Assembly: GCA_013538805.1 (NCBI GenBank)
Contig: JABXGR010000011.1
Coordinates: 7,020 to 39,019, forward strand
Direction: 5' to 3'
Length of the DNA stretch: 32,000 bases
From: Candidatus Nitrosocaldus schleperae
GTDB taxonomy: Archaea; Thermoproteota; Nitrososphaeria; Nitrososphaerales; Nitrosocaldaceae
How positions within the stretch are numbered: the stretch's first letter is position 1; every line of letters starts with the position of its first letter. The position numbers and the translations under genes are program-made. Below the pieces are notes generated by a model, which saw nothing but the letters and a program-made list of their open reading frames with translations, ran no database searches and was not told where the DNA came from. Positions 1 to 24,257 of this stretch are shown piece after piece.

Positions 1-108
1 GAACTACGATGGCTCATGGAGTGAGTGGGGTAACGCTGTAGGGCTACCAATAGAGAAGTAAAGAAAGACAGAAAGAAAGAAAGACAACCATCCACTATAT
101 TTTTATAG

Positions 109-2841
109 TCAGGTTAGTTCAAGCCTCCCTATTAGAGTATCTTCATCCAATGCCTCAAGCCTAAAGCCCATCCTCTTCATAAGATCTATTATCCTAGCAT
201 TACTTGCAAGCATAACTGCATTAACAGCCTTGACATTCATATCCTCAGCTATCTCAAGTATGTAATCCACAAGTTTTGTGCCTAGTCCTAATCCCTGCCA
301 TGGATCTGCAACTATTACTGCTACCTCACCCTCTCTATAGCCATCCTTACCCCTACTCCTCCAATCTATTACTAGACTTGCTACACCTATTATCCTCTTT
401 GCATTACCCTCGCTAAGCTCAGCAACTATGCTCATCTCCCTAGCATAGTCTATGTTACAGTATCTAACTATCTGCTCATGAGGAGTATCCTTTATTACCG
501 TGAAGAACCTCTGATACACACTCTCTTGAGAGAGATGCTTGAACATATCGAGCCAGAGAGGCTCATCTTCAGGCTTTATTGGTCTTAGGAGTACTGTCCT
601 TCCATCCTTTAGCGTCCATAGCCTCTCATACCTCTTTGGATAAGGGCTTATCACTAGATGCCTATAAGGGTCATGATCCTTGCTTGTCCTTGCTCTAGCC
701 CTTACCTCATCTATCACTATCCTTGCATCTAGAGCAATTATGTCCTTGCCATGAACAAGCAATGGGTTTATATCAACCTCCTCTATCTCTGGGAAGTCTA
801 TCAGCATCTGAGAGAATGATACAAGCAACTGCTCCAATGCCCTCATATCTACTGCTGGTATATCCCTGTAACCCCTGAGTATTCTGTATACTCTAGTCTC
901 CTCAATGAGCATCCTTGCAAGGACTTGGTTTAATGGAGGTAGACCTACAGCAAAGTCTCTGAATATCTCAACTCCTACACCTCCCATGCCGAAGAGTATC
1001 ACTGGCCCAAATATTGGATCATGCCTTGCCCCAAGGATGACCTCTACGCCTTTCTTAGTAACCATAGGTTGGACTGTAACACCATCTATCCTAGCATCTG
1101 GCATCCTAGACTTGACATTCTGCATCATCCTGTTGTACGCTTCTCTAACCTCATCCTCATCCTTAAGGTTAAGCATGACTCCTCCCACATCGCTCTTATG
1201 CGTTATATCCTTAGAGTAGATCTTTAGCACTACAGGGTAGCCTATGCTTGATGCTAGTGCTACTGCCTCATCCTCGCTCCTTGCAATTAAAGTTCTTACA
1301 ACTGGTATGTTGTAGTATGAGATGAACTCTTTAGACTCTACCTCATCCAGAACCTTCCTCTTCTCTGCTATAGCATTATTTATCATTGTTAGCAATGGTC
1401 TCTTTGGTGGCATGAAGTCTATGAGTGCTTCAGGTGTCTGATACAGCATCTCAAGCCTATGCTTGTACTGGTACATGTAGATGAATGTCTTTACAGCCTG
1501 CTCTGGAGTATCGTATGTAGGGATGCCATTCTCGTTGAGTATCCTGTTTGCTTCATGCTGGAACATGAAGGATGTGAGGATTGGTTTGATTATACCACGC
1601 CCACCCCCACCACCATCATCACTACTACTACTCTTACATACATCAACAACGGTCTTTGCTATCTCTGTAGAGTCTATCATGGTTGGTGTGTATATTACAA
1701 GGATGCCATCAACATTGCTATCCTTCAAGCATAGTTCTAATGCCCTCCTATACCTTGATGCATCTGCATCCCCTATTAGATCTACAGGGTTGCCCTTGCT
1801 CCAATGCTTTGGAAGTACTTTGTTGAGTTCTTCTATAGTGTTAGGGTCCAACTCTGCCAACCTTCCTCCACTTGTCAGTAATGCATCTGTAGCCATTATC
1901 GCTGGTCCTCCAGCATTCGTTATTATTGCTAGCCTAGGTCCATTGGGCAATGGCTGCTTTGCCAATGCCTCAGCACAGTTGAAGAGTTCAGATATCTCAT
2001 CGACCCTTATTATCCCTGCCCTCTTGAATGCTGCATCATACACAACATCCTCACCTGCAAGGGAGCCTGTATGCGACTGCACTGCTCTAGCACTCTCTGC
2101 AAACTTGCCTGCCTTCACAACTATTATAGGCTTTGTCCTAGCGAAGTGCCTTGCAGCGCTTATGAACCTCTTTGCATCACTTATCCCCTCAACGTAGAGG
2201 AGGATGCTCTTTGTCTCTGGATCCTTGCCTAAATACTCTATAAGGTCTCCAAAGTCAACATCAAGCATTGAGCCTACGGAGATGAATGCACTAAACCCTA
2301 TACTCTCATCTATAGCCCATTCTACTATAGCTGAGCCAAGTGCACCACTCTGGGAGATGAAGGCAACGTTCCCTGGCTCTGGTGTCCTGCTTAGGAATGT
2401 TGCATTAAGGTTACTGCTAGGCCTTATTATGCCAAGGCAGTTTGGCCCTATTATGTTTAGAGCGTACTTATCCCTAGCCTCTATTATCTTTGCTTCAAGT
2501 GCCCTGCCTTCCTCACCAACCTCTCTGAAACCTGCAGAGATTATGATGAGGTTCTTCACACCTGCTCTGCCACACTGCTCAACTATCCCTGGTACTGTTG
2601 GTGCTGGTGTTGCTATAACAGCAAGATCAACGCTCTCTGGTATATCCTCTACACTCTTGTAAGCCTTTACACCCAACACTTCATCCTTCCTTATGTTCAC
2701 TGGGTACACATTGCCCTTGCCCTTGCCCTTATACTCCATGAGGTTCTTCATAAGCCTCCAGCCCACAGTACCTTCCTCATCACTAGCCCCTATCACAGCT
2801 ATGCTCCTTGGACTAAAGAAGGATGAGAGATCGCTAGCCAT
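109..2841 (-). CDS. ADP-forming acyl-CoA synthetase (fused ACD-type alpha+beta domains) with a C-terminal GNAT acetyltransferase domain; Pat-like architecture
   Basis: The N-terminus has a CoA-binding motif (SIAVIGAS...VYPVN), followed by NCLGII and SQSGALG ligase-CoA motifs. SHTGSLAG contains His257 (codon 2071-2073). An ATP-grasp segment follows (GYPVVLKIYSKDITHKSDVGGV). The C-terminal GNAT domain has the acetyl-CoA motif QGLGLGTKL. The ATG at 2839-2841 overlaps the phaC stop by 8 nt. Confidence 0.85.
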   Translation of the reverse strand: MASDLSSFFSPRSIAVIGASDEEGTVGWRLMKNLMEYKGKGKGNVYPVNIRKDEVLGVKAYKSVEDIPESVDLAVIATPAPTVPGIVEQCGRAGVKNLIIISAGFREVGEEGRALEAKIIEARDKYALNIIGPNCLGIIRPSSNLNATFLSRTPEPGNVAFISQSGALGSAIVEWAIDESIGFSAFISVGSMLDVDFGDLIEYLGKDPETKSILLYVEGISDAKRFISAARHFARTKPIIVVKAGKFAESARAVQSHTGSLAGEDVVYDAAFKRAGIIRVDEISELFNCAEALAKQPLPNGPRLAIITNAGGPAIMATDALLTSGGRLAELDPNTIEELNKVLPKHWSKGNPVDLIGDADASRYRRALELCLKDSNVDGILVIYTPTMIDSTEIAKTVVDVCKSSSSDDGGGGGRGIIKPILTSFMFQHEANRILNENGIPTYDTPEQAVKTFIYMYQYKHRLEMLYQTPEALIDFMPPKRPLLTMINNAIAEKRKVLDEVESKEFISYYNIPVVRTLIARSEDEAVALASSIGYPVVLKIYSKDITHKSDVGGVMLNLKDEDEVREAYNRMMQNVKSRMPDARIDGVTVQPMVTKKGVEVILGARHDPIFGPVILFGMGGVGVEIFRDFAVGLPPLNQVLARMLIEETRVYRILRGYRDIPAVDMRALEQLLVSFSQMLIDFPEIEEVDINPLLVHGKDIIALDARIVIDEVRARARTSKDHDPYRHLVISPYPKRYERLWTLKDGRTVLLRPIKPEDEPLWLDMFKHLSQESVYQRFFTVIKDTPHEQIVRYCNIDYAREMSIVAELSEGNAKRIIGVASLVIDWRSRGKDGYREGEVAVIVADPWQGLGLGTKLVDYILEIAEDMNVKAVNAVMLASNARIIDLMKRMGFRLEALDEDTLIGRLELT

Positions 2842-4306
2842 CTATACCACCTGAGGATATGCCAACATCTCCATTATCCTTACCCCCTCCTCCTACACCC
2901 CTCTCTCTAGCCTCTTCTATGATGCTAGACCTAGCCTTCTCAATAACCCATCTTGCAACACTTGGCCAGAGTTGCTTATGTGCAATGCTACTTATGCATA
3001 GACCAACATGCCCTCCTGGTATGCTCATAACCCTCTTCTCCTTACTTGAGATGTGATCGTTAACTGCAAGTGTTGATGCTGGTGCTGTAAGATCATCATT
3101 TTCAGCAACTATTGTAAGGATTGGTAGATCTATGCTCTTAAGATCAACCCTCTTACCATCAACCTCTAGTAACCCCCTCACTAGCATATTCCCCTTGTAT
3201 AGATCCTCTATTACCTGCTCATAGAACCTACCTGGCACATTTGGTGTATTGTAGAGCCATCTCTCAACTGCATAGAAAGTCTCTACAAAGGCTCTATCGT
3301 TAATCCTCTTCCATAGGTTGAGGTACTTCATAACAGTATATCTTACAGGATTGCGTAATAGGAATGCTATATCCAATGCTTGTCCATTCATATGCCCATA
3401 CTCTGCAACAAGCCTCCTAGCATCTATAGCCTTTGCCCATACAGCAAGTATACCATCATCCTTATCAAAGTCAACTGGTGCTGCCATAACTATGAGGCTG
3501 TTCAGTTTCTGCTTGTAAAGTGAAGCATAGATGAGTGATACTATTCCACCCCAACAGTAGCCAAGCATTGATATCCTATCCTTACTGCTTACCTCTCTAA
3601 CCCTATCCACAGCCTCATCAAGAATATGTATGTAATCTTCAAGTGAGAGATGCTCATCCTCATAGCCCATATGCCCCCAGTCTAGCATATATACATCCAA
3701 CCCTTCATCCATGAGCCTCCTCACAACACTCTTATCCTTACTCACATCCATTATATGATACCTGTTTATCATGGCATAGACTATGAGTATAGGGTACCCT
3801 TTACCTCCTCTATAGTGTAGAAGCCTAACCTTACCCTTGCTATACACAACATCATAACTACTTGCATCTACAGGCAGATCCTGTGTTGATAGCATGAATG
3901 AGAGCATCCTTGTGTATGATCTGAACTGCTCTGCAAGTACATCCTCAAGTATGTTATCGTAATCCTTTACAGGGTAGACCATCCTAAGCATGGCATGTAT
4001 GCTGAGCCATGAGCCAAGGTAATCTGTGAGCATATGGGCAAACCTCTCCGACTTCAACTCCTCATCAAGCATAACATCCATGATGTTAAGCATCCTCATG
4101 TATGGATGCTCTTTGCCTCTTCCTATACCATCCTCCTGCAATACCATCATCAATGCTTTATAGAATATGCTTGAGTATGTATCTGATATCTTGAGCATAC
4201 TGCTAGCCATCCCTAGCCACTCTAATGCTAGTCTGTTGTATACAAGTGGTAATGGTAATGGCAGACTCCTAGACCTCTCCCTTATGTACTCTATGGTCAT
4301 GGTCAT
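2834..4306 (-). CDS. phaC: Poly(3-hydroxyalkanoate) synthase, class III PhaC-like alpha/beta hydrolase with an N-terminal extension of about 100-130 aa
   Basis: The lipase-box-like GYCWGG contains Cys251 (codon 3554-3556). Asp404 (AENDDLTAP) and His433 (PGGHVGL) align with the Cys-Asp-His triad of Allochromatium-type PhaC as I recall that sequence. ILIVYAMINRYHIMD and YMLDWG match conserved class III blocks. The C-terminus is a Gly-rich low-complexity tail. Confidence 0.85.
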   Translation of the reverse strand: MTMTIEYIRERSRSLPLPLPLVYNRLALEWLGMASSMLKISDTYSSIFYKALMMVLQEDGIGRGKEHPYMRMLNIMDVMLDEELKSERFAHMLTDYLGSWLSIHAMLRMVYPVKDYDNILEDVLAEQFRSYTRMLSFMLSTQDLPVDASSYDVVYSKGKVRLLHYRGGKGYPILIVYAMINRYHIMDVSKDKSVVRRLMDEGLDVYMLDWGHMGYEDEHLSLEDYIHILDEAVDRVREVSSKDRISMLGYCWGGIVSLIYASLYKQKLNSLIVMAAPVDFDKDDGILAVWAKAIDARRLVAEYGHMNGQALDIAFLLRNPVRYTVMKYLNLWKRINDRAFVETFYAVERWLYNTPNVPGRFYEQVIEDLYKGNMLVRGLLEVDGKRVDLKSIDLPILTIVAENDDLTAPASTLAVNDHISSKEKRVMSIPGGHVGLCISSIAHKQLWPSVARWVIEKARSSIIEEARERGVGGGGKDNGDVGISSGGIDG

Positions 4307-4327
4307 GAGAGTGATGATATAAAAGTA

Positions 4328-4335
4328 TATTTAAA
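4328..4335 (-). promoter_or_regulatory. TATA-box-like element (minus-strand TTTAAATA) upstream of phaC
   Basis: It matches the archaeal TATA consensus and is centred about 25 nt upstream of the phaC ATG at 4306. This implies a leaderless or very short-leader transcript. Confidence 0.5.
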
Positions 4336-4373
4336 TCATTACCATTACAAGGCTCATTATGCCTTATTATGCC

Positions 4374-5150
4374 TTATCTTACCCTAATAAACCCTATACC
4401 ATCAGACTTCCTTACTAGCATGTGTATCAATGGCTCTTCCCTCCTTATCTCAAGGAGTTCATGTCCTCTCTCCTCACTCCACCTAACTATCTCTATATCT
4501 GCTGTAGGATCATCAGATACTATATGCACAACCTCGCCCTTCTCTATCCTTGCTATGAGTTCATCCAACTTTGGGATCACTGCAGCACACTCAACCCCTA
4601 TCTCAACCATCTCATGATCAGGGAATGCAGAGAAGCATCTAACATGCATCTCCCTTATCTTCTCAGCAAGTTTATCCTTACATCTCTCTATTGGTTCGAG
4701 TAGGTCAAGGTCTCTAGCATCGTGAACCTCAAGCACTGCTATCCAACCATCTCCATATGGATGATCATTAACAATCTTTGGCTTATCTGCTACCAACTTG
4801 TTCATCTCAACTATCCTACCCCTAACAGGGGATCTTACTACGCCAAAGTACCTTAGGCTCTCTATACTTGCTATACTCTTGCCCTTATCAACCTCAGTGC
4901 CTTCAGGTTTTATCCTTACGCTGGTAAGCCTGCCTGCAACATATGCAAGTATGCTTGTTATCCCTAGCCTTACCCTAAGTACCCTACCTCCAGTTATACT
5001 GCTTTCATTGCCCTCTTCTCTACCTCCCCATCCCCTCATACCAGCAGGATCTTCCACCCTTGCCCATACAAGATTCTCCAGATCGTACAGCAGGGTATCA
5101 TCGAACTCACAGTTATCTATCCTGATCATAGCAGCATCAGGTACAACCAA
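4374..5150 (-). CDS. Fusion protein: N-terminal glycine-cleavage-H-like (lipoyl-domain fold) and C-terminal TusA/SirA-like domain
   Basis: Residues about 60-145 align with GcvH (IASIESLRYFGVVRSPVRGRIVEMN...PYGDGWIAVLEV), but the lipoyl-Lys position is Arg100 (AGG, codon 4851-4853). Residues about 180-250 resemble TusA (ECAAVIPKLDELIARIEKGEVVHIVSDDPTADIEIVRWSEERGHELL). Cys188 (codon 4587-4589) is kept but the canonical CPxP is not. Confidence 0.65.
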   Translation of the reverse strand: MVVPDAAMIRIDNCEFDDTLLYDLENLVWARVEDPAGMRGWGGREEGNESSITGGRVLRVRLGITSILAYVAGRLTSVRIKPEGTEVDKGKSIASIESLRYFGVVRSPVRGRIVEMNKLVADKPKIVNDHPYGDGWIAVLEVHDARDLDLLEPIERCKDKLAEKIREMHVRCFSAFPDHEMVEIGVECAAVIPKLDELIARIEKGEVVHIVSDDPTADIEIVRWSEERGHELLEIRREEPLIHMLVRKSDGIGFIRVR

Positions 5151-5246
5151 ATCCTATTTATCCTTAATAGTTAGATAGTAACGCTTTATTATTTACAATT
5201 GTATATATCTTTAGATGTAGAGTGTTAGGATGGGGAAGAGGATGTT

Positions 5247-6050
5247 ATGCATAGCATAGCCATAAGCATAATAAGGAATCTACTCAACATTACTGGAGCA
5301 TATAAGGTGTATGAGTGGTATCTGGAGAAGCAGTTGGATCCTAGAAGGATACCAAACCATATAGGCATAATAATGGATGGGAATAGGAGATGGTCTGAAT
5401 CATTCATGTTTGATAAGTTCGATGGCTATGCTATTGGTGCAGATAAGGTGTACAAGGCAGTTGAGTGGTGCATAGACCTTGGGGTAAGGCAGATAACACT
5501 CTACGTACTCTCAACAGAGAATCTTAGGAGGAGCAAGGAAGATCTTGAATCACTCTTCAGGGTACTTGAATCAAGGCTAGATAGCCTCTACCATGATCCA
5601 AGGGTGTATGAGAAGAGGATGAGGATAAAGGCTATAGGCAAGGTTGAGAGGTTGCCTGAGAGCATAAGGGCTAAGATACATAGGCTTGAGGAGGCTACGA
5701 GGGAGCATGATGGTTACTATATAACGTTAGCAGTAGCATATGGAGGGAGGGCAGAGATAGTTGAGAGTATAAAGAGGATAGCAGAGAAGGTGAAGAGGGG
5801 AGAGATAGAGCCAGATGATATAGATGAGAAGGTTATAGAGGACCATCTCTTCACTAGAGATCTACCAAAACAAGAGCCAGATCTCATAATAAGGACATCT
5901 GGAGAGGTTAGGCTTAGTGGTTTCCTGCTCTGGCAGTCAGCGTACAGCGAGCTTGTATTCCTAGATGTTCTATGGCCAGAGTTCAGGAGGATAGATCTGC
6001 TTAGAGCCATAAGGATATATCAGAGCAGGAAGAGACGTTATGGACTATGA
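5247..6050 (+). CDS. uppS: cis-prenyltransferase (undecaprenyl-diphosphate synthase family)
   Basis: HIGIIMDGNRRW and IRTSGEVRLSGFLLWQSAYSELVF are hallmark UppS motifs. Confidence 0.9.
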   Translation: MHSIAISIIRNLLNITGAYKVYEWYLEKQLDPRRIPNHIGIIMDGNRRWSESFMFDKFDGYAIGADKVYKAVEWCIDLGVRQITLYVLSTENLRRSKEDLESLFRVLESRLDSLYHDPRVYEKRMRIKAIGKVERLPESIRAKIHRLEEATREHDGYYITLAVAYGGRAEIVESIKRIAEKVKRGEIEPDDIDEKVIEDHLFTRDLPKQEPDLIIRTSGEVRLSGFLLWQSAYSELVFLDVLWPEFRRIDLLRAIRIYQSRKRRYGL

Positions 6051-6853: not shown

Positions 6854-8260
6854 CTATGCTTGTTTTGTAATAGTTCCATCCTTTAAGCGGAGTATTGTGT
6901 AAAGGGGTATAATAACAATGCCAACAAAGAACATGGCAAGGTAAGGGGCATCTATGCTGAATGCATCAGCAACCACGCCAGAGGCTATTGGTCCTAACGC
7001 CCATCCTATTCCAAATACGGTCTCATACAATCCTACCATACTACCTATCATCGTGATGGGTACGTAGCGGGTAAGCATGGTAAGTGTTATAGGAAAGTAG
7101 ATGCTGAATGCAAAGCCTAATGCTAGCAGTGCTACACCAAATGATGGTGGTGTTGGTGCAGTATGCATTATAAGCATAGATGATGCTATTGCACTACTTG
7201 CAATGAGTATGCTGATATGCTCATACCTTGCAAAGAGTTGTATTGAGAGTAATGTTAGCAACCTTGCTATCCCAAATATGAAGAAGAGTATGCCTATCAA
7301 TTGCTCATCAACACCATTATCCTTCATATAACTTGGTACTATTGAGAGCAGTATTGCAAACGATGCACTGTAGTACATTATCATTGCTATAAGCATGATC
7401 CTACCCTTAACCAGGCTCATCAAGGTTAGATGTGCTTTACTGATACCAATCCTTCCCTTCTCCTCCTCCTGCCCATTCTTTATGCTATAATCAGGGTAGC
7501 CTTTCTTCATAGATAATAGGATGATGATAATGGAGCATACCAATGCTGGGATGATCATAGTTGAAGAATATATGAATAGTTGAAGGTATCCTAGATGGAA
7601 TAGTGATGAGCCTATGAGTGGACCTATCATATAGCCAGAGACCCATGCCATGGTGAATCTTGATATAGATCTTACACTACTTAAACTACTACCATTGCTA
7701 CTACTACTACCACTACCACTATTGCTGTTGCTGTTGCTGCTATTGCTACTACCCTTATCCCTACCACCACTACTGCTACTATTACTGCTACTAGAATAGC
7801 TGCCATCTCTCTCAAGGTCTTTGCTATATCTATCAACCCTCATACTCATGCTTATGATAGCCTCTGCAGATGGCCAGAAGAATGCATGTGCTATTCCAGA
7901 GAATGCTCTTATCAGTGCAAGGTCAACTACGCTCCTCGCTAGGCTTAACATCGCTATCGATGCTAGAGCCATACCAACCCCTGATAGAAGTATGCTTCCT
8001 TTGTTAATCCTATCTAGTAGCAATCCAACCATGAATGGGAAGAATGCATAAGGGATGTAGTTTGCCATGCCTATCATACCAACCTCTGTGTATGTTGCAT
8101 CTAGAACTTCTCTTGCAAAGACTGGAACCAATGGTACATGAGCACCATACGCTATACCCATGGAGAGTGCACAGATGTAGAGTAGGAGGAGTGTAATGCT
8201 ATACTTCCCCCTCCTCCCCTCTTCTCCCTTCTTCTTACCATCGTATCTATCGTAACCCAT
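6854..8260 (-). CDS. Major facilitator superfamily transporter with a Ser/Asn/Gly-rich central loop insertion
   Basis: There are about 12 TM segments in a 6+6 arrangement, with an MFS-like loop motif (LLLDRINKG). The central cytoplasmic loop is expanded by a poly-S/N/G tract. Confidence 0.75.
   Translation of the reverse strand: MGYDRYDGKKKGEEGRRGKYSITLLLLYICALSMGIAYGAHVPLVPVFAREVLDATYTEVGMIGMANYIPYAFFPFMVGLLLDRINKGSILLSGVGMALASIAMLSLARSVVDLALIRAFSGIAHAFFWPSAEAIISMSMRVDRYSKDLERDGSYSSSSNSSSSGGRDKGSSNSSNSNSNSGSGSSSSNGSSLSSVRSISRFTMAWVSGYMIGPLIGSSLFHLGYLQLFIYSSTMIIPALVCSIIIILLSMKKGYPDYSIKNGQEEEKGRIGISKAHLTLMSLVKGRIMLIAMIMYYSASFAILLSIVPSYMKDNGVDEQLIGILFFIFGIARLLTLLSIQLFARYEHISILIASSAIASSMLIMHTAPTPPSFGVALLALGFAFSIYFPITLTMLTRYVPITMIGSMVGLYETVFGIGWALGPIASGVVADAFSIDAPYLAMFFVGIVIIPLYTILRLKDGTITKQA
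7680..7800. repeat. Trinucleotide-type low-complexity tract (GCT/ACT/ATT units) encoding the poly-Ser/Asn/Gly loop of the MFS protein
   Basis: Runs of ctactactac, cactaccact and gctgttgctgttgctgc are visible. They translate to SSSSNSSSSGGRDKGSSNSSNSNSNSGSGSSSSNGSS. Confidence 0.7.
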
Positions 8261-14681: not shown

Positions 14682-15638
14682 ATGCCAAAGAGATACTCCA
14701 TCGAGGAGGTTAAGCAGAGGATAGTAGATGTGTTAAAGCAATCCGACTCTGGACTCTCTGGCATAGAGATAGCAGAGAGGACTGGTATAAACAGGGTTAC
14801 CATAACCAAGTATCTTAACATACTTGAGACCATGGGTATAATAAAGAGGAGGAGCATGGGTCCTGTGAATGTATGGTATATAAAGCATGGCGTGGATCTA
14901 AGCAGTAAGGACATACTAGAACTACAGCAGTTATACATGGATGCACTATTCACATATGATGAGGATAAGGCTAGAACCATACTCCTCAATGCAATACACT
15001 CAAACGTTGATCCAATACTGCTAATGAGCGATGTTATTATACCAACCATAAACACTGCTGGAGAGTTGTATGCAAGGGGAAGGATGAGCGCTATAGATAT
15101 CATGCTTGTAAACAATCTTGCAATGGAATCTCTAGACCTAATAAAGTTCAACGCTAGCAGGGTAGAGGTGAAGAGGGATGCATATGCAGTCTTCATGAGC
15201 ATGAGTGAGAAGATCGGGAGGGAGGCTGTTGATATGAAGGCAGCATCTATTGCATTCTACATAAAGGGTTGGAATCCATTCTTATTAGGCAATGTTGGCT
15301 CAGAGGCAGGGCTCTTCCTCGACATAGATATAGTTAGGTTCATCAACAAGATATTGAGGGATAGAGGAAAGGGCATCATCCTCCTCTACATATCTGCAGC
15401 AGAGGAGTTTGCAGCATTAAACGAGTTGATAAGATCTGTTAAGGAGAAGCTTGAGAAGAATATACTTGTAATAGTTGGGGGCAGGGTACTGGATAGGCTT
15501 GAGGGTAAATATAAGGATACAAGTGCAGGAGTAATGGTTGGAAAGGATACAGTATATCCATACATAGACCACTATACAATAGATATAATGAAGGCTGTAG
15601 AATGGGCTGAGAAGATGTATAGGAGTCTAAAGTTGTAA
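14682..15638 (+). CDS. Putative transcription regulator: N-terminal winged HTH fused to a cobalamin-binding-like module (helical bundle plus Rossmann) that lacks the His ligand
   Basis: Residues 1-70 form the wHTH (LSGIEIAERTGINRVTITKYLNILETMGIIKR). Residues 78-150 resemble the B12-binding_2 helical bundle. Residues 165-270 follow the B12-binding Rossmann pattern (GWNPFLLGNVG, ILLYISAA, ILVIVGG). The DxHxxG position reads MSEKIG (15201-15218). Confidence 0.55.
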   Translation: MPKRYSIEEVKQRIVDVLKQSDSGLSGIEIAERTGINRVTITKYLNILETMGIIKRRSMGPVNVWYIKHGVDLSSKDILELQQLYMDALFTYDEDKARTILLNAIHSNVDPILLMSDVIIPTINTAGELYARGRMSAIDIMLVNNLAMESLDLIKFNASRVEVKRDAYAVFMSMSEKIGREAVDMKAASIAFYIKGWNPFLLGNVGSEAGLFLDIDIVRFINKILRDRGKGIILLYISAAEEFAALNELIRSVKEKLEKNILVIVGGRVLDRLEGKYKDTSAGVMVGKDTVYPYIDHYTIDIMKAVEWAEKMYRSLKL

Positions 15639-21597: not shown

Positions 21598-22251
21598 TTA
21601 ATCCCACTTGCTCCACGCAGCAGCCCATCTGTACGTCCAAGTGTTCAGCTTTGCTCCCAAGGCTGCCATTGGAACGCTTATAACAGCACTAATACCTGCT
21701 GCTAGGGCTACTGGGCTGTTGTAGAACTTGCCTACCTGAGGCTCGATTGGTGTTAGGTATGCTGGGAGTGTTGGTCTTGGGTACTTGAATGCCATCTCCA
21801 ATGGGTCATGTACAGTAAGCAAGTTTATCATGTTGAAGAGTGGCATCGACATGCCTAGTAGAGAGCCTCCTATGAGTATCGCTGCATGCTTGTTCCTCCT
21901 GGTTGCCCAGTATGCTAGATCCAATAGCATTGCACTTGGTATCCACACTGGGACTATCATGAAGTCGTATGGGTAGCCTAACCCTCCAATCCAAGCCCAT
22001 TTTGCAACCCAGGTGTAGATGGTCATTATTGTAGCGTAATAGGTTGCTGTACCAGGCACACCTGTGAATAGCAGGTAGTAGATGGCACCAACCACAAGCA
22101 TGGTTGACTGGCTAAGATTAAAGATCACAAAGGATGTCCACATCCAGTCAGAGTAGAAGATGTAGTCTCCAGCATTGATGGTCAGTAGCGTTGAGTTCAC
22201 TGCAACTACCACTATGAACAGGTAGTGTATTGTTCGTCTAATCCAGACCAT
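21598..22251 (-). CDS. amoA: Ammonia monooxygenase subunit A (archaeal type)
   Basis: The 217-aa product begins MVWIRRTIHYLFIVVVAVNSTLLTINAGDYIFYSDWMWTSF, nearly identical to the N-terminus of known thaumarchaeal AmoA. It has the expected length and 6 TM segments. Confidence 0.97.
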   Translation of the reverse strand: MVWIRRTIHYLFIVVVAVNSTLLTINAGDYIFYSDWMWTSFVIFNLSQSTMLVVGAIYYLLFTGVPGTATYYATIMTIYTWVAKWAWIGGLGYPYDFMIVPVWIPSAMLLDLAYWATRRNKHAAILIGGSLLGMSMPLFNMINLLTVHDPLEMAFKYPRPTLPAYLTPIEPQVGKFYNSPVALAAGISAVISVPMAALGAKLNTWTYRWAAAWSKWD

Positions 22252-22748: not shown

Positions 22749-23312
22749 TTATGGTATGCTCCTGCTGTACAACTTGCCCTCTAGTGCAAGCTTGTACATC
22801 TCTGCAACGTATGGGTTGCTTGGTGGTGTCTCCATTCCTAGCTCTACCATCCTAACGTAGAGCCTTACCACATAGGCTAGAGCACCCATGAATGCTACAA
22901 CGACACCCATGTTGAATGACCAGTGGTTTGGAACTGCGAATACCTCCTCAACGAACCAGAAGTGCCACATCTCATTTATGCCTATGGTGAACATTGTACC
23001 TAAGTAGCCTATGATGGTCATCTTTATACCAGTGTTAACACTGTTGTTTGGACCCCTCATCAGTGGCACCCTTCTGTCATATATCATTATTGCACCCCAG
23101 CCTAGTGGTAGGGCTACGAAGTGGGAGTATAGCCACCAGTGTGCTGGTGTGAATGCACTATCCCTTATACTTGTCTGGTGAAGTGAGCCATCTACGAAGT
23201 TATCAACCTCAACACTTGCTGCAACTGAACCCATCACTATGACCATTATCAGTATCTTCTTCAGCCTCTGCATCTCAACCTCCTTTGGTAGTAGTGCTGG
23301 CATCTGAGCCAT
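22749..23312 (-). CDS. amoC: Ammonia monooxygenase subunit C (archaeal type)
   Basis: The 187-aa product carries TPAHWWLYSHFVALPLGWGA and EMWHFWFVEEVFAVPNHW blocks characteristic of thaumarchaeal AmoC. The genomic context supports the call. Confidence 0.95.
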   Translation of the reverse strand: MAQMPALLPKEVEMQRLKKILIMVIVMGSVAASVEVDNFVDGSLHQTSIRDSAFTPAHWWLYSHFVALPLGWGAIMIYDRRVPLMRGPNNSVNTGIKMTIIGYLGTMFTIGINEMWHFWFVEEVFAVPNHWSFNMGVVVAFMGALAYVVRLYVRMVELGMETPPSNPYVAEMYKLALEGKLYSRSIP

Positions 23313-23627: not shown

Positions 23628-24257
23628 ATGAAGGTAATGCATGTAGCATTGCTGACTGCAGTGGCGGTAGTACTGGTCCTTGGCTCATTTGCGCCCATGA
23701 TGAAGGATGCATTTGCACATGGTGTCCAGGCACAGTTACAGAGCAGGTTCGTAAAGATAGAGGATGAGACATTCTCAACATTCAGGGTCATTACAAAGCA
23801 AGAGTATGCAAACAGGACAGGGTTGACACTTGAGCAGATAGATGCTATGGGCTGTGACCCAAGAAGACAGGATATACTGATAGTTACTGGAAGGCTTGTA
23901 AGCCAGGTTAACAAGGATCTAAGGGCATGGATCTCCCTCTTCAACGAGTCAACCAATGCAGGCAACAGGTGGGAGTTCATATCAAGGGAGCCACCAGGTA
24001 ATGTATTCGATATACCTCCAGGTGGAGAGGTTCCATATAAGCTGTGTGTATCAGCACTTGAGCCTGGAACATACCATACGCATACACAGTTGAATGTAGC
24101 TAGTGTTGGTCCAGGTCTTGGTCCAGGTGCAACAATAGTAGTAGAGGGAGAGCCAACGATGAAGCCAATGTCAGTAGGTAATGTGATATATCAGACCATA
24201 CTGATTGCAATAGGTTTAGCAATATCATTTGCAACAAGACCATGGCAGGTTATATAA
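23628..24257 (+). CDS. amoB: Ammonia monooxygenase subunit B (archaeal short form)
   Basis: A signal peptide ends AFA, followed by HGVQAQLQSRF, the hallmark mature N-terminus of archaeal AmoB. His31 plus the His150-x-His152 motif (YHTHTQ) correspond to the CuB ligands of PmoB. A C-terminal TM anchor is present. Confidence 0.93.
   Translation: MKVMHVALLTAVAVVLVLGSFAPMMKDAFAHGVQAQLQSRFVKIEDETFSTFRVITKQEYANRTGLTLEQIDAMGCDPRRQDILIVTGRLVSQVNKDLRAWISLFNESTNAGNRWEFISREPPGNVFDIPPGGEVPYKLCVSALEPGTYHTHTQLNVASVGPGLGPGATIVVEGEPTMKPMSVGNVIYQTILIAIGLAISFATRPWQVI

Follow-up and report, generated by a model that had tools for sequence, protein, structure and literature searches.

A GcvH-like/TusA-like fusion protein of ammonia-oxidizing and other archaea as a candidate lipoate-independent sulfur relay partner of rhodanese

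The open reading frame (ORF) at positions 4374–5150 of a 32,000-nucleotide stretch of the Candidatus Nitrosocaldus schleperae genome (assembly GCA_013538805.1, contig JABXGR010000011.1, positions 7,020–39,019 of the forward strand), referred to below as the window, encodes a protein that joins a domain with the fold of the glycine-cleavage H-protein GcvH to a domain with the fold of the sulfur carrier TusA. The protein carries arginine at the position of the lipoyl-lysine, belongs to a large archaeal family with three universal cysteines, and has as its characteristic genomic partner a tandem rhodanese. We put at about 55% the probability that the fusion protein, without need of lipoate, relays sulfur through its cysteines as the partner of this rhodanese. 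The features of the gene on which the argument is built are as follows.

4374–5150, minus strand: fusion ORF, 258 aa, with a TTG start as called.
4635–5129, minus strand: GcvH-fold (LbpA-like) domain, residues 8–172, including the C-terminal helix and Cys172 (Pfam GCV_H, Foldseek).
4851–4853, minus strand: codon of Arg100 at the GcvH/LbpA lipoyl-lysine position (CCT on the plus strand, coding AGG).
4407–4613, minus strand: TusA-fold domain, residues 180–248, with Cys188 at the N-terminus of helix 1 and a conserved S-D-D-P motif (Pfam, phmmer, Foldseek).
5109–5111, minus strand: codon of Cys14 in the motif N-C-x-F-[PD], present in 120/120 closest relatives and in 32/32 aligned fusion representatives.
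4587–4643, minus strand: most conserved segment, the interdomain linker V-R-C172-F-x-A-F-P-D-H-E-M-x-E-I-G-V-E-C188, with Cys172 at 4635–4637 and Cys188 at 4587–4589.

The N-terminal half is recognized by Pfam GCV_H (residues 60–157, E = 1.9e-26, 92.8 bits against a cut-off of 22.2), and it does not reach the cut-offs of the NCBIfam GcvH equivalog TIGR00527 (59.4 against 115.85 bits) or of NF002270 (77.8 against 117 bits). In an AlphaFold2 model of the window protein (predicted local distance difference test score, pLDDT, 78.9), Foldseek superimposes this half on the T. thermophilus H-protein 1onl_A with a template-modelling (TM) score of 0.91 and a root-mean-square deviation (rmsd) of 1.4 Å, and the C-terminal half on E. 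coli TusA (3lvj_C) with a TM score of 0.84. Both folds had been proposed in the first-pass annotation of the window, which was made from the sequence alone, and both stand, as does its placing of Arg100 at the lipoyl site: in phmmer alignments against PDB, E97-S98-L99-R100 falls opposite E-S-V-K, the lipoyl motif, in the H-proteins of pea, T. thermophilus, and T. maritima. Lysine is absent from the rest of the lipoyl hairpin of the window protein; K89 and K91 lie 9–11 residues before Arg100, in a turn that bears lysines in the Thermus and pea proteins too. Two further features set the hairpin apart. The residue following the lipoyl position is a bulky Tyr-Phe as opposed to the small Ala/Thr/Ser of ESVKA, and R106, six residues after position 100, is an invariant arginine in the fusion family that is absent from canonical GcvH and from one of the stand-alone GcvH-like relatives described below (P0197).

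The C-terminal half exceeds the gathering threshold of Pfam TusA (residues 185–248, E = 3.5e-8, 33.6 against 28.6 bits), falls far short of the NCBIfam TusA equivalog (25 bits, cut-off 78), and matches 1je3, 1dcj, and 3lvj (YhhP/TusA and YedF) in the phmmer search of PDB. Cys188 is aligned there with the TusA cysteine, in the context VECAAVIP and without CPxP (the motif as defined in PMC11094781), and in the model of a homolog helix 1 begins immediately past its equivalent. The altered cysteine motif noted in the first reading is therefore present in the window but is not a local change, since C-[SA]-A-[TV] replaces CPxP across the main clades of the family. Some deep branches have kept CPGP or CPE, which indicates that the TusA-like domain descends from ordinary TusA proteins. 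Cysteines 14, 172, and 188 are found in all fusion sequences examined, C172 and C188 being invariant in the diverse alignment.

The fusion, which had at first been taken for an unusual one, is in fact a widespread archaeal family with hundreds of database entries, and its double nature is already recorded in automated annotation: several members (e.g., at JGI) are named 'glycine cleavage system H lipoate-binding protein/TusA-related sulfurtransferase'. No published description of the family was found in the literature library searched. Among 5.8 billion proteins, 884 matches were obtained, the best 120 of which are nearly all of about 219 aa and contain both GCV_H and TusA. An exhaustive search of 1.84 billion cluster representatives with a hidden Markov model yielded 50 clusters at 50% identity (E ≤ 1e-30), and a further large clade of Thermoplasmata was reached via one divergent representative. 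When one genome was scanned for each GTDB species, relatives turned up in 149 genomes, comprising Nitrosocaldales, many Nitrososphaeraceae, and metagenome-assembled genomes (MAGs) labelled Bathyarchaeia and Thermoplasmata, and the closest homologs of the window protein are from Candidatus Nitrosocaldus. A metagenome scan with a narrower alignment returned mostly plain GcvH-domain proteins and also yielded a deep branch with the motif GGECPE. An artefact of gene calling or assembly was ruled out, as the same uninterrupted ORF occurs on hundreds of independent contigs.

To describe the genomic context, the ORFs of 80 loci were clustered within ±8 kb of the fusion gene, with counts made on 77 loci. 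A gene for a tandem rhodanese of about 280 aa lies directly downstream of the fusion gene and convergent to it in 65 of the 77 loci, in all phyla, with a median stop-to-stop gap of 71.5 bp. The product contains two Pfam Rhodanese domains, matches the T. thermophilus rhodanese 1UAR with E = 2.8e-117 as well as the mycobacterial CysA/SseA thiosulfate sulfurtransferases, and has one conserved cysteine, which 62 of 64 sequences place in a CRIGERS loop; judged by sequence, the partner is a genuine enzyme of the thiosulfate sulfurtransferase (TST) type. The same gene pair, separated by 5–18 bp, was found in the divergent Thermoplasmata clade (loci L081–L084 examined). The window itself holds only the end of the rhodanese gene.

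2–61, plus strand: 3' end of the rhodanese gene, comprising the last 19 codons NYDGSWSEWGNAVGLPIEK and the stop; identical to the C-terminus of the rhodanese of locus L004, with the remainder upstream of the window.

In some Nitrososphaeraceae genomes the fusion gene is present twice, on separate contigs (L010 and L011 in MAG MFD09055.bin.2.18; L009 and L032 in SMAG_U8522). Three of these copies (L009, L010, L011) have the convergent rhodanese directly downstream, and the contig of the fourth (L032) ends approximately 100 bp past the fusion gene.

The folds, the conservation pattern, the Lys/Arg polymorphism, and the gene linkage are established; that the protein binds sulfur, in which direction sulfur is passed, and what finally receives it are matters of inference. 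In the proposed relay, the rhodanese would load sulfane sulfur, e.g., from thiosulfate, onto the catalytic cysteine of its CRIGERS loop and would hand it, by analogy with known carriers, to Cys188 of the TusA-like domain. Cys172 and Cys14 could then act as the next acceptor or as resolving thiols, substituting for LbpA's lipoamide dithiol, and, more speculatively, the Arg or Lys at position 100 together with R106 may bind anionic sulfur species or a partner protein. The relay or its acceptor would feed assimilatory or trafficking reactions in organisms with no sHdr or Dsr oxidation system nearby. The path from rhodanese through C188 to C172/C14 is suggested by four precedents: in Allochromatium a rhodanese passes sulfur to the TusA encoded beside it (PMC11094781); in Aquifex TusA physically contacts LbpA (PMC11094781); dihydrolipoate is a known sulfur acceptor of rhodanese (PMC6067878); and thiosulfonate is transferred between DsrE3A and TusA in the archaeon Metallosphaera (PMC4175335), thiosulfonate carriage by archaeal TusA being also described in PMC11094781.

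A more specific form of the proposal, which we consider rather unlikely as it stands, makes the protein a 'lipoate-free LbpA', in which C14 and C172 would replace the dihydrolipoamide dithiol and which, with the rhodanese, would form a self-contained thiosulfate/persulfide unit. Its integral TusA module would take up sulfur from the rhodanese, and the sulfur on C188 would be resolved by C172/C14, leaving a disulfide, and this step would release sulfide or hand the sulfur on.

Several observations weigh against a relay. CPxP, the defining motif of sulfur-binding TusA proteins, is absent from the main clades. The correspondence of C14 and C172 to the cysteine pair of LbpA was judged from the published description and from stand-alone relatives of unverified function. 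Gene linkage is the sole functional evidence, and it has its own exceptions: the deepest metagenomic branch (GGECPE) has a rhodanese nearby in just 2 of about 9 loci, the rhodanese gene of the window lies 4.3 kb from the fusion gene with two genes in between, and the two genes, being convergent, are not co-transcribed. Finally, no downstream acceptor (DsrE, DsrC, sHdr, MnmA, or MoaD) is consistently located near the fusion genes in the neighbourhoods examined. At one deep-branch metagenomic locus a gene of the ThiS/MoaD family (L093, 5658–5927, minus strand) stands divergently upstream of the fusion gene, with no rhodanese nearby; this arrangement may point to a thiocarboxylate acceptor, though it is a single, anecdotal case.

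The three universal cysteines come from three regions of the chain and are accompanied by mostly conserved histidines, an arrangement that would also suit a scaffold or regulator that binds a metal or an Fe-S cluster or senses thiol redox state. In it, C14, C172, C188, and maybe His209 and His243 would make up, at the domain interface, either a metal site or a disulfide acting as a redox switch, and no relay would take place. We regard this alternative as doubtful. It draws on the poor modelling of residues 175–187 of the window protein (pLDDT < 50), as is possible for cofactor-dependent regions, and on the redox context of stand-alone relatives with an N-terminal cysteine and a C-terminal CxRC, whose genes adjoin those of hemerythrin and Thioredoxin_3. 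The weak segment disappears, however, in the AlphaFold model of a compact homolog of 219 aa (P0019), calculated from an 80-sequence alignment of the Nitrososphaerales and Thermoplasmata clades: pLDDT is 95.0, the predicted TM score is 0.86, and the conserved linker reaches pLDDT 87–95 with no cofactor supplied. In Foldseek, its GcvH half matches 3a7l (TM 0.91, rmsd 1.3 Å) and its TusA half matches E. coli TusA structures, 3lvk_B among the matched chains, with TM 0.87–0.90. No single PDB chain spans both domains in this search, the best query-normalised TM score being 0.55, and according to the model the GcvH-like and TusA-like domains form one rigid two-domain unit. The candidate ligands are likewise less conserved than the cysteines would suggest: C157 and H179 are invariant only in close relatives and are not conserved more broadly, and His209 is replaced by Leu, Arg, or Met in several branches. 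Moreover, the conserved partner is a catalytic sulfurtransferase, and C188 occupies exactly the sulfur-binding position of TusA.

A second alternative, that the protein is a genuine lipoyl carrier analogous to LbpA or GcvH, with the Lys members lipoylated and the Arg forms inactive or regulatory, is improbable given the distribution of residues at position 100. It has in its favor a good GcvH fold with the hairpin intact, a Lys at the exact position in roughly 20–45% of members, depending on the sampling, and an LplA-like ligase encoded two genes from the stand-alone relative P0197. Nevertheless, in 224 fusion sequences position 100 is Arg in 177, Lys in 43, Thr in 2, Val in 1, and Ser in 1. 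Parsimony on a neighbour-joining tree of these sequences counts at least 21 changes of the Lys/Arg state with Arg at the midpoint root, a root state that is tentative because the sampling is uneven. Both residues occur in nearly every clade of the 77 species-level loci (Arg 42, Lys 34, Thr 1); the 37 representatives at 50% identity comprise 22 with Arg, 10 with Lys, and 5 with Thr, Ser, or Val; and Lys prevails in the 120 closest database clusters (114), a sample dominated by one heavily sequenced soil clade.

Arg100 is thus not the local lysine-to-arginine degeneration that the first-pass annotation had seen in it, since Arg is the commonest state and the two residues have been exchanged repeatedly. 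In Nitrosocaldales the Lys and Arg codons (AAG vs. AGG/AGA) are separated by a single transition in otherwise conserved proteins, and because Arg is encoded differently in the window and in its nearest relative, the residue has persisted there. Proteins with Arg retain the remaining conserved residues as well as the rhodanese neighbour, and some whole clades are fixed for Arg, so lipoylation, to which Arg is not amenable, cannot be the common function of the family. What the hairpin tip appears to conserve, on the alignments, is a positive charge, Arg or Lys, and not lysine as such. No specific residue compensating for the Lys/Arg state was found, the top mutual-information columns mirroring clade differences only. 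The Tyr-Phe after the site also speaks against a lipoyl carrier, as does the absence of lipoate ligase and synthase genes from the window and from the fusion loci examined. In ammonia-oxidizing archaea (AOA), both the glycine cleavage system and the 2-oxoacid dehydrogenase complex are reported to have been lost (PMC7554672), the Thaumarchaeota surveyed are without lipoylation genes (PMC3904984), and such genes are present only in some deep-sea lineages (PMC7265257). Arg as the usual state of the family agrees with these reported losses; apart from PMC3904984 and PMC7554672, the literature searched offered no study that explicitly surveys Nitrosocaldus or Nitrososphaera for lipoate genes.

Two genes separate the fusion gene from the rhodanese in the window.

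2834–4306, minus strand: phaC-like alpha/beta hydrolase (Pfam).
109–2841, minus strand: acyl-CoA synthetase (ADP-forming)-GNAT fusion (ACS-GNAT; Pfam).

The name PhaC describes mainly an alpha/beta-hydrolase match, and the assignment as a polyhydroxyalkanoate synthase is not secure because PhaC_N is sub-threshold (20.6 against 23.7 bits). This neighbourhood, singled out in the first-pass annotation, is present as described but is specific to Nitrosocaldales, the family-wide neighbour being the tandem rhodanese. It is very improbable that the fusion protein acts with the two enzymes in polyhydroxyalkanoate or acyl-CoA metabolism, for example by carrying an acyl group or some different prosthetic group, which corresponds to the scaffold or other-carrier role considered in the first reading, since the block, although co-directional with the fusion gene (a 67-bp gap followed by an 8-bp overlap of the phaC-like and ACS-GNAT genes, with no terminator-like site after the fusion gene) and shared by the window with loci L001–L006, occurs in only 7 of the 77 loci, all of Nitrosocaldales type, is missing from the vicinity in other clades, where the rhodanese directly adjoins, and looks like an insertion that separates two older partners.

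The sulfur relay reading also has to be set against the systems that the fusion protein resembles. In function it would come closest to an LbpA–TusA hybrid within a rhodanese relay, and it is a member neither of GcvH nor of LbpA nor of canonical TusA. The similarity to GcvH (PF01597, TIGR00527) consists of the fold (rmsd 1.3–1.4 Å), the E-S-x-[KR] hairpin, and the PYG(D/E)GW block; unlike GcvH, the window protein lacks the lipoyl-lysine, scores below the cut-off, has extra conserved cysteines, and comes from a lineage whose glycine cleavage system is reportedly lost (PMC7554672), with gcvT and gcvP found neither in the window nor among the recurrent neighbours of the 77 loci. What most conspicuously separates the LbpA proteins of sHdr systems from GcvH is a conserved cysteine pair with one member near each terminus (Cao et al., 2018, PMC6067878; LbpA is also treated in Tanabe et al., 2023, 2024). 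C14 and C172 fit this hallmark pair, the GcvH-fold domain is a single one as in LbpA, and LbpA is functionally tied to TusA and rhodaneses, so that the comparison with LbpA and TusA drawn in the first reading was well chosen. The lipoate-binding lysine of LbpA, in contrast, is strictly conserved (PMC6067878) and lipoylated, while the fusion family mostly has Arg at position 100. LbpA is free-standing, whereas the fusion protein is joined to a TusA-like domain, and LbpA genes lie in or beside shdr and lipoate-assembly clusters (sLpl(AB), LipS1/S2), of which none is near the fusion genes: Hdr-like and lipoate-ligase genes are absent from the recurrent neighbours in the 77 loci and from L081–L084. 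No LbpA entry was found in PDB, and none in an hdr context in the plasmid collection.

With TusA/SirA (PF01206; E. coli 3LVJ) the C-terminal domain shares the two-layer alpha/beta fold (TM 0.84–0.90), the cysteine of helix 1, and the D-D-P motif, and the fusion gene stands beside a rhodanese gene, as in the Rhd_2599-TusA pair of Allochromatium. It differs in lacking CPxP in the main clades, in scoring below the equivalog cut-off, in being joined to a GcvH-like domain, and in its surroundings: no DsrE or other Dsr protein, IscS, Tus partner, or biosynthetic enzyme is consistently linked to the fusion gene in the neighbourhoods examined. The Rhd-TusA-DsrE2/DsrE3 cascades offer a TST-type rhodanese genetically paired with a TusA-fold carrier that has a single active cysteine; the fusion loci, however, are without a linked DsrE-family protein or terminal oxidizing or reducing complex, and the fusion carrier has a built-in LbpA-like domain with two further cysteines.

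The stand-alone proteins that match the family profile best are GcvH-like and about 145–160 aa long. The N-terminal cysteine motif is shared by 35 of 64, and 23 also have a C-terminal cysteine, several ending in GFGGC or GFSGC. The closest of them carry N-terminal G-C-x-x-P-[ED], and stand-alone proteins containing Tyr/Phe, including canonical GcvH of the ETVKA type, are mostly lower in the list. Identification of the stand-alone relatives as LbpA of sHdr systems was rejected because the four loci inspected (in Acidithiobacillus, Thermithiobacillus, an Acidiferrobacter-like genome, and Microbaculum) all lie outside shdr clusters. An unnamed GcvH-like family of 148 aa from Acidithiobacillus, Thermithiobacillus, Acidiferrobacter-like bacteria, and Microbaculum (loci L085–L089; proteins P0420, P0405, P0197, P0427) combines G-C-x-x-P-[ED] with a retained lysine (ESGKW) and a C-[MF]-R-C end. 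Its neighbours are repeatedly Thioredoxin_3, hemerythrin in 3 of 5 loci, a Crp regulator in 2 of 5, and once the LplA-like ligase mentioned above, and the family also occurs on plasmids of A. ferrooxidans.

As for the boundaries of the fusion gene, the true start is likely to be the ATG at 5129 (Met8), giving a protein of 251 aa, because most homologs begin there (MIKIENC or MKIDNC in the alignment). Two segments of the window protein lie outside the common core.

4977–5054, minus strand: G/R/E-rich insertion, residues about 33–58, seen in the homolog alignment and predicted to be disordered (pLDDT about 33).
4377–4406, minus strand: C-terminal tail of 10 residues, SDGIGFIRVR, predicted to be disordered.

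The insertion, already remarked on in the first reading, is real; it is confined to Nitrosocaldales-type sequences and varies in length among them. The tail recurs only in the closest relative (P0002), and the other members of the fusion family stop directly after V-R-K. Low-complexity insertions or tails rich in Gly, Ser, Asn, and Arg occur in several unrelated proteins of the window, the insertion at 4977–5054 among them; other examples are a stretch of the major facilitator superfamily transporter at 6854–8260 on the minus strand (SSSSNSSSSGGRDKGSSNSSNSNSNSGSGSSSSNGSS) and the C-terminus of the phaC-like protein at 2834–4306 on the minus strand (GVGGGGKDNGDVGISSGGIDG), which suggests a genome-wide tendency that is not specific to the fusion gene. 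A scan of 4200–5300 for sigma-70 promoters and terminators returned nothing exceeding the shuffled expectation, and such a scan is not applicable to archaea.

Elsewhere in the window, amoA (21598–22251, minus strand), amoC (22749–23312, minus strand), and an amoB-like ORF mark the host as an ammonia-oxidizing archaeon, and with Candidatus Nitrosocaldus as the source of the closest homologs it is a thermophilic one. The amoB-like ORF at 23628–24257 is on the opposite (plus) strand, encodes only 209 aa, and has a weak match to Pfam Monooxygenase_B. A 318-aa protein encoded at 14682–15638 on the plus strand combines HTH_11/HTH_24 DNA-binding domains with a B12-binding_2 domain and is possibly a cobalamin-responsive regulator.

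For sulfur trafficking in AOA, an essentially unstudied subject, and for the role of the two conserved cysteines of LbpA, the fusion family constitutes a natural experiment, in which an LbpA-like domain has been stripped of its lipoyl-lysine, attached to a TusA-like carrier, and provided with a TST partner, and it occurs in cultivable Nitrososphaera. The present analysis also corrects the annotation of its members as 'glycine cleavage system H protein', a name that misleadingly points to lipoylation or to glycine cleavage. If the 'lipoate-free LbpA' form of the proposal were true, the family would directly demonstrate the role of the unexplained conserved cysteines of LbpA and would represent an unrecognized route of thiosulfate/sulfane-sulfur assimilation or detoxification in ammonia-oxidizing archaea, Bathyarchaeia, and Thermoplasmata. 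The relay as such, if true, would add a cysteine-only version to the rhodanese/TusA/LbpA network and could offer abundant archaea of soils and hot springs a way of using thiosulfate or sulfane sulfur.

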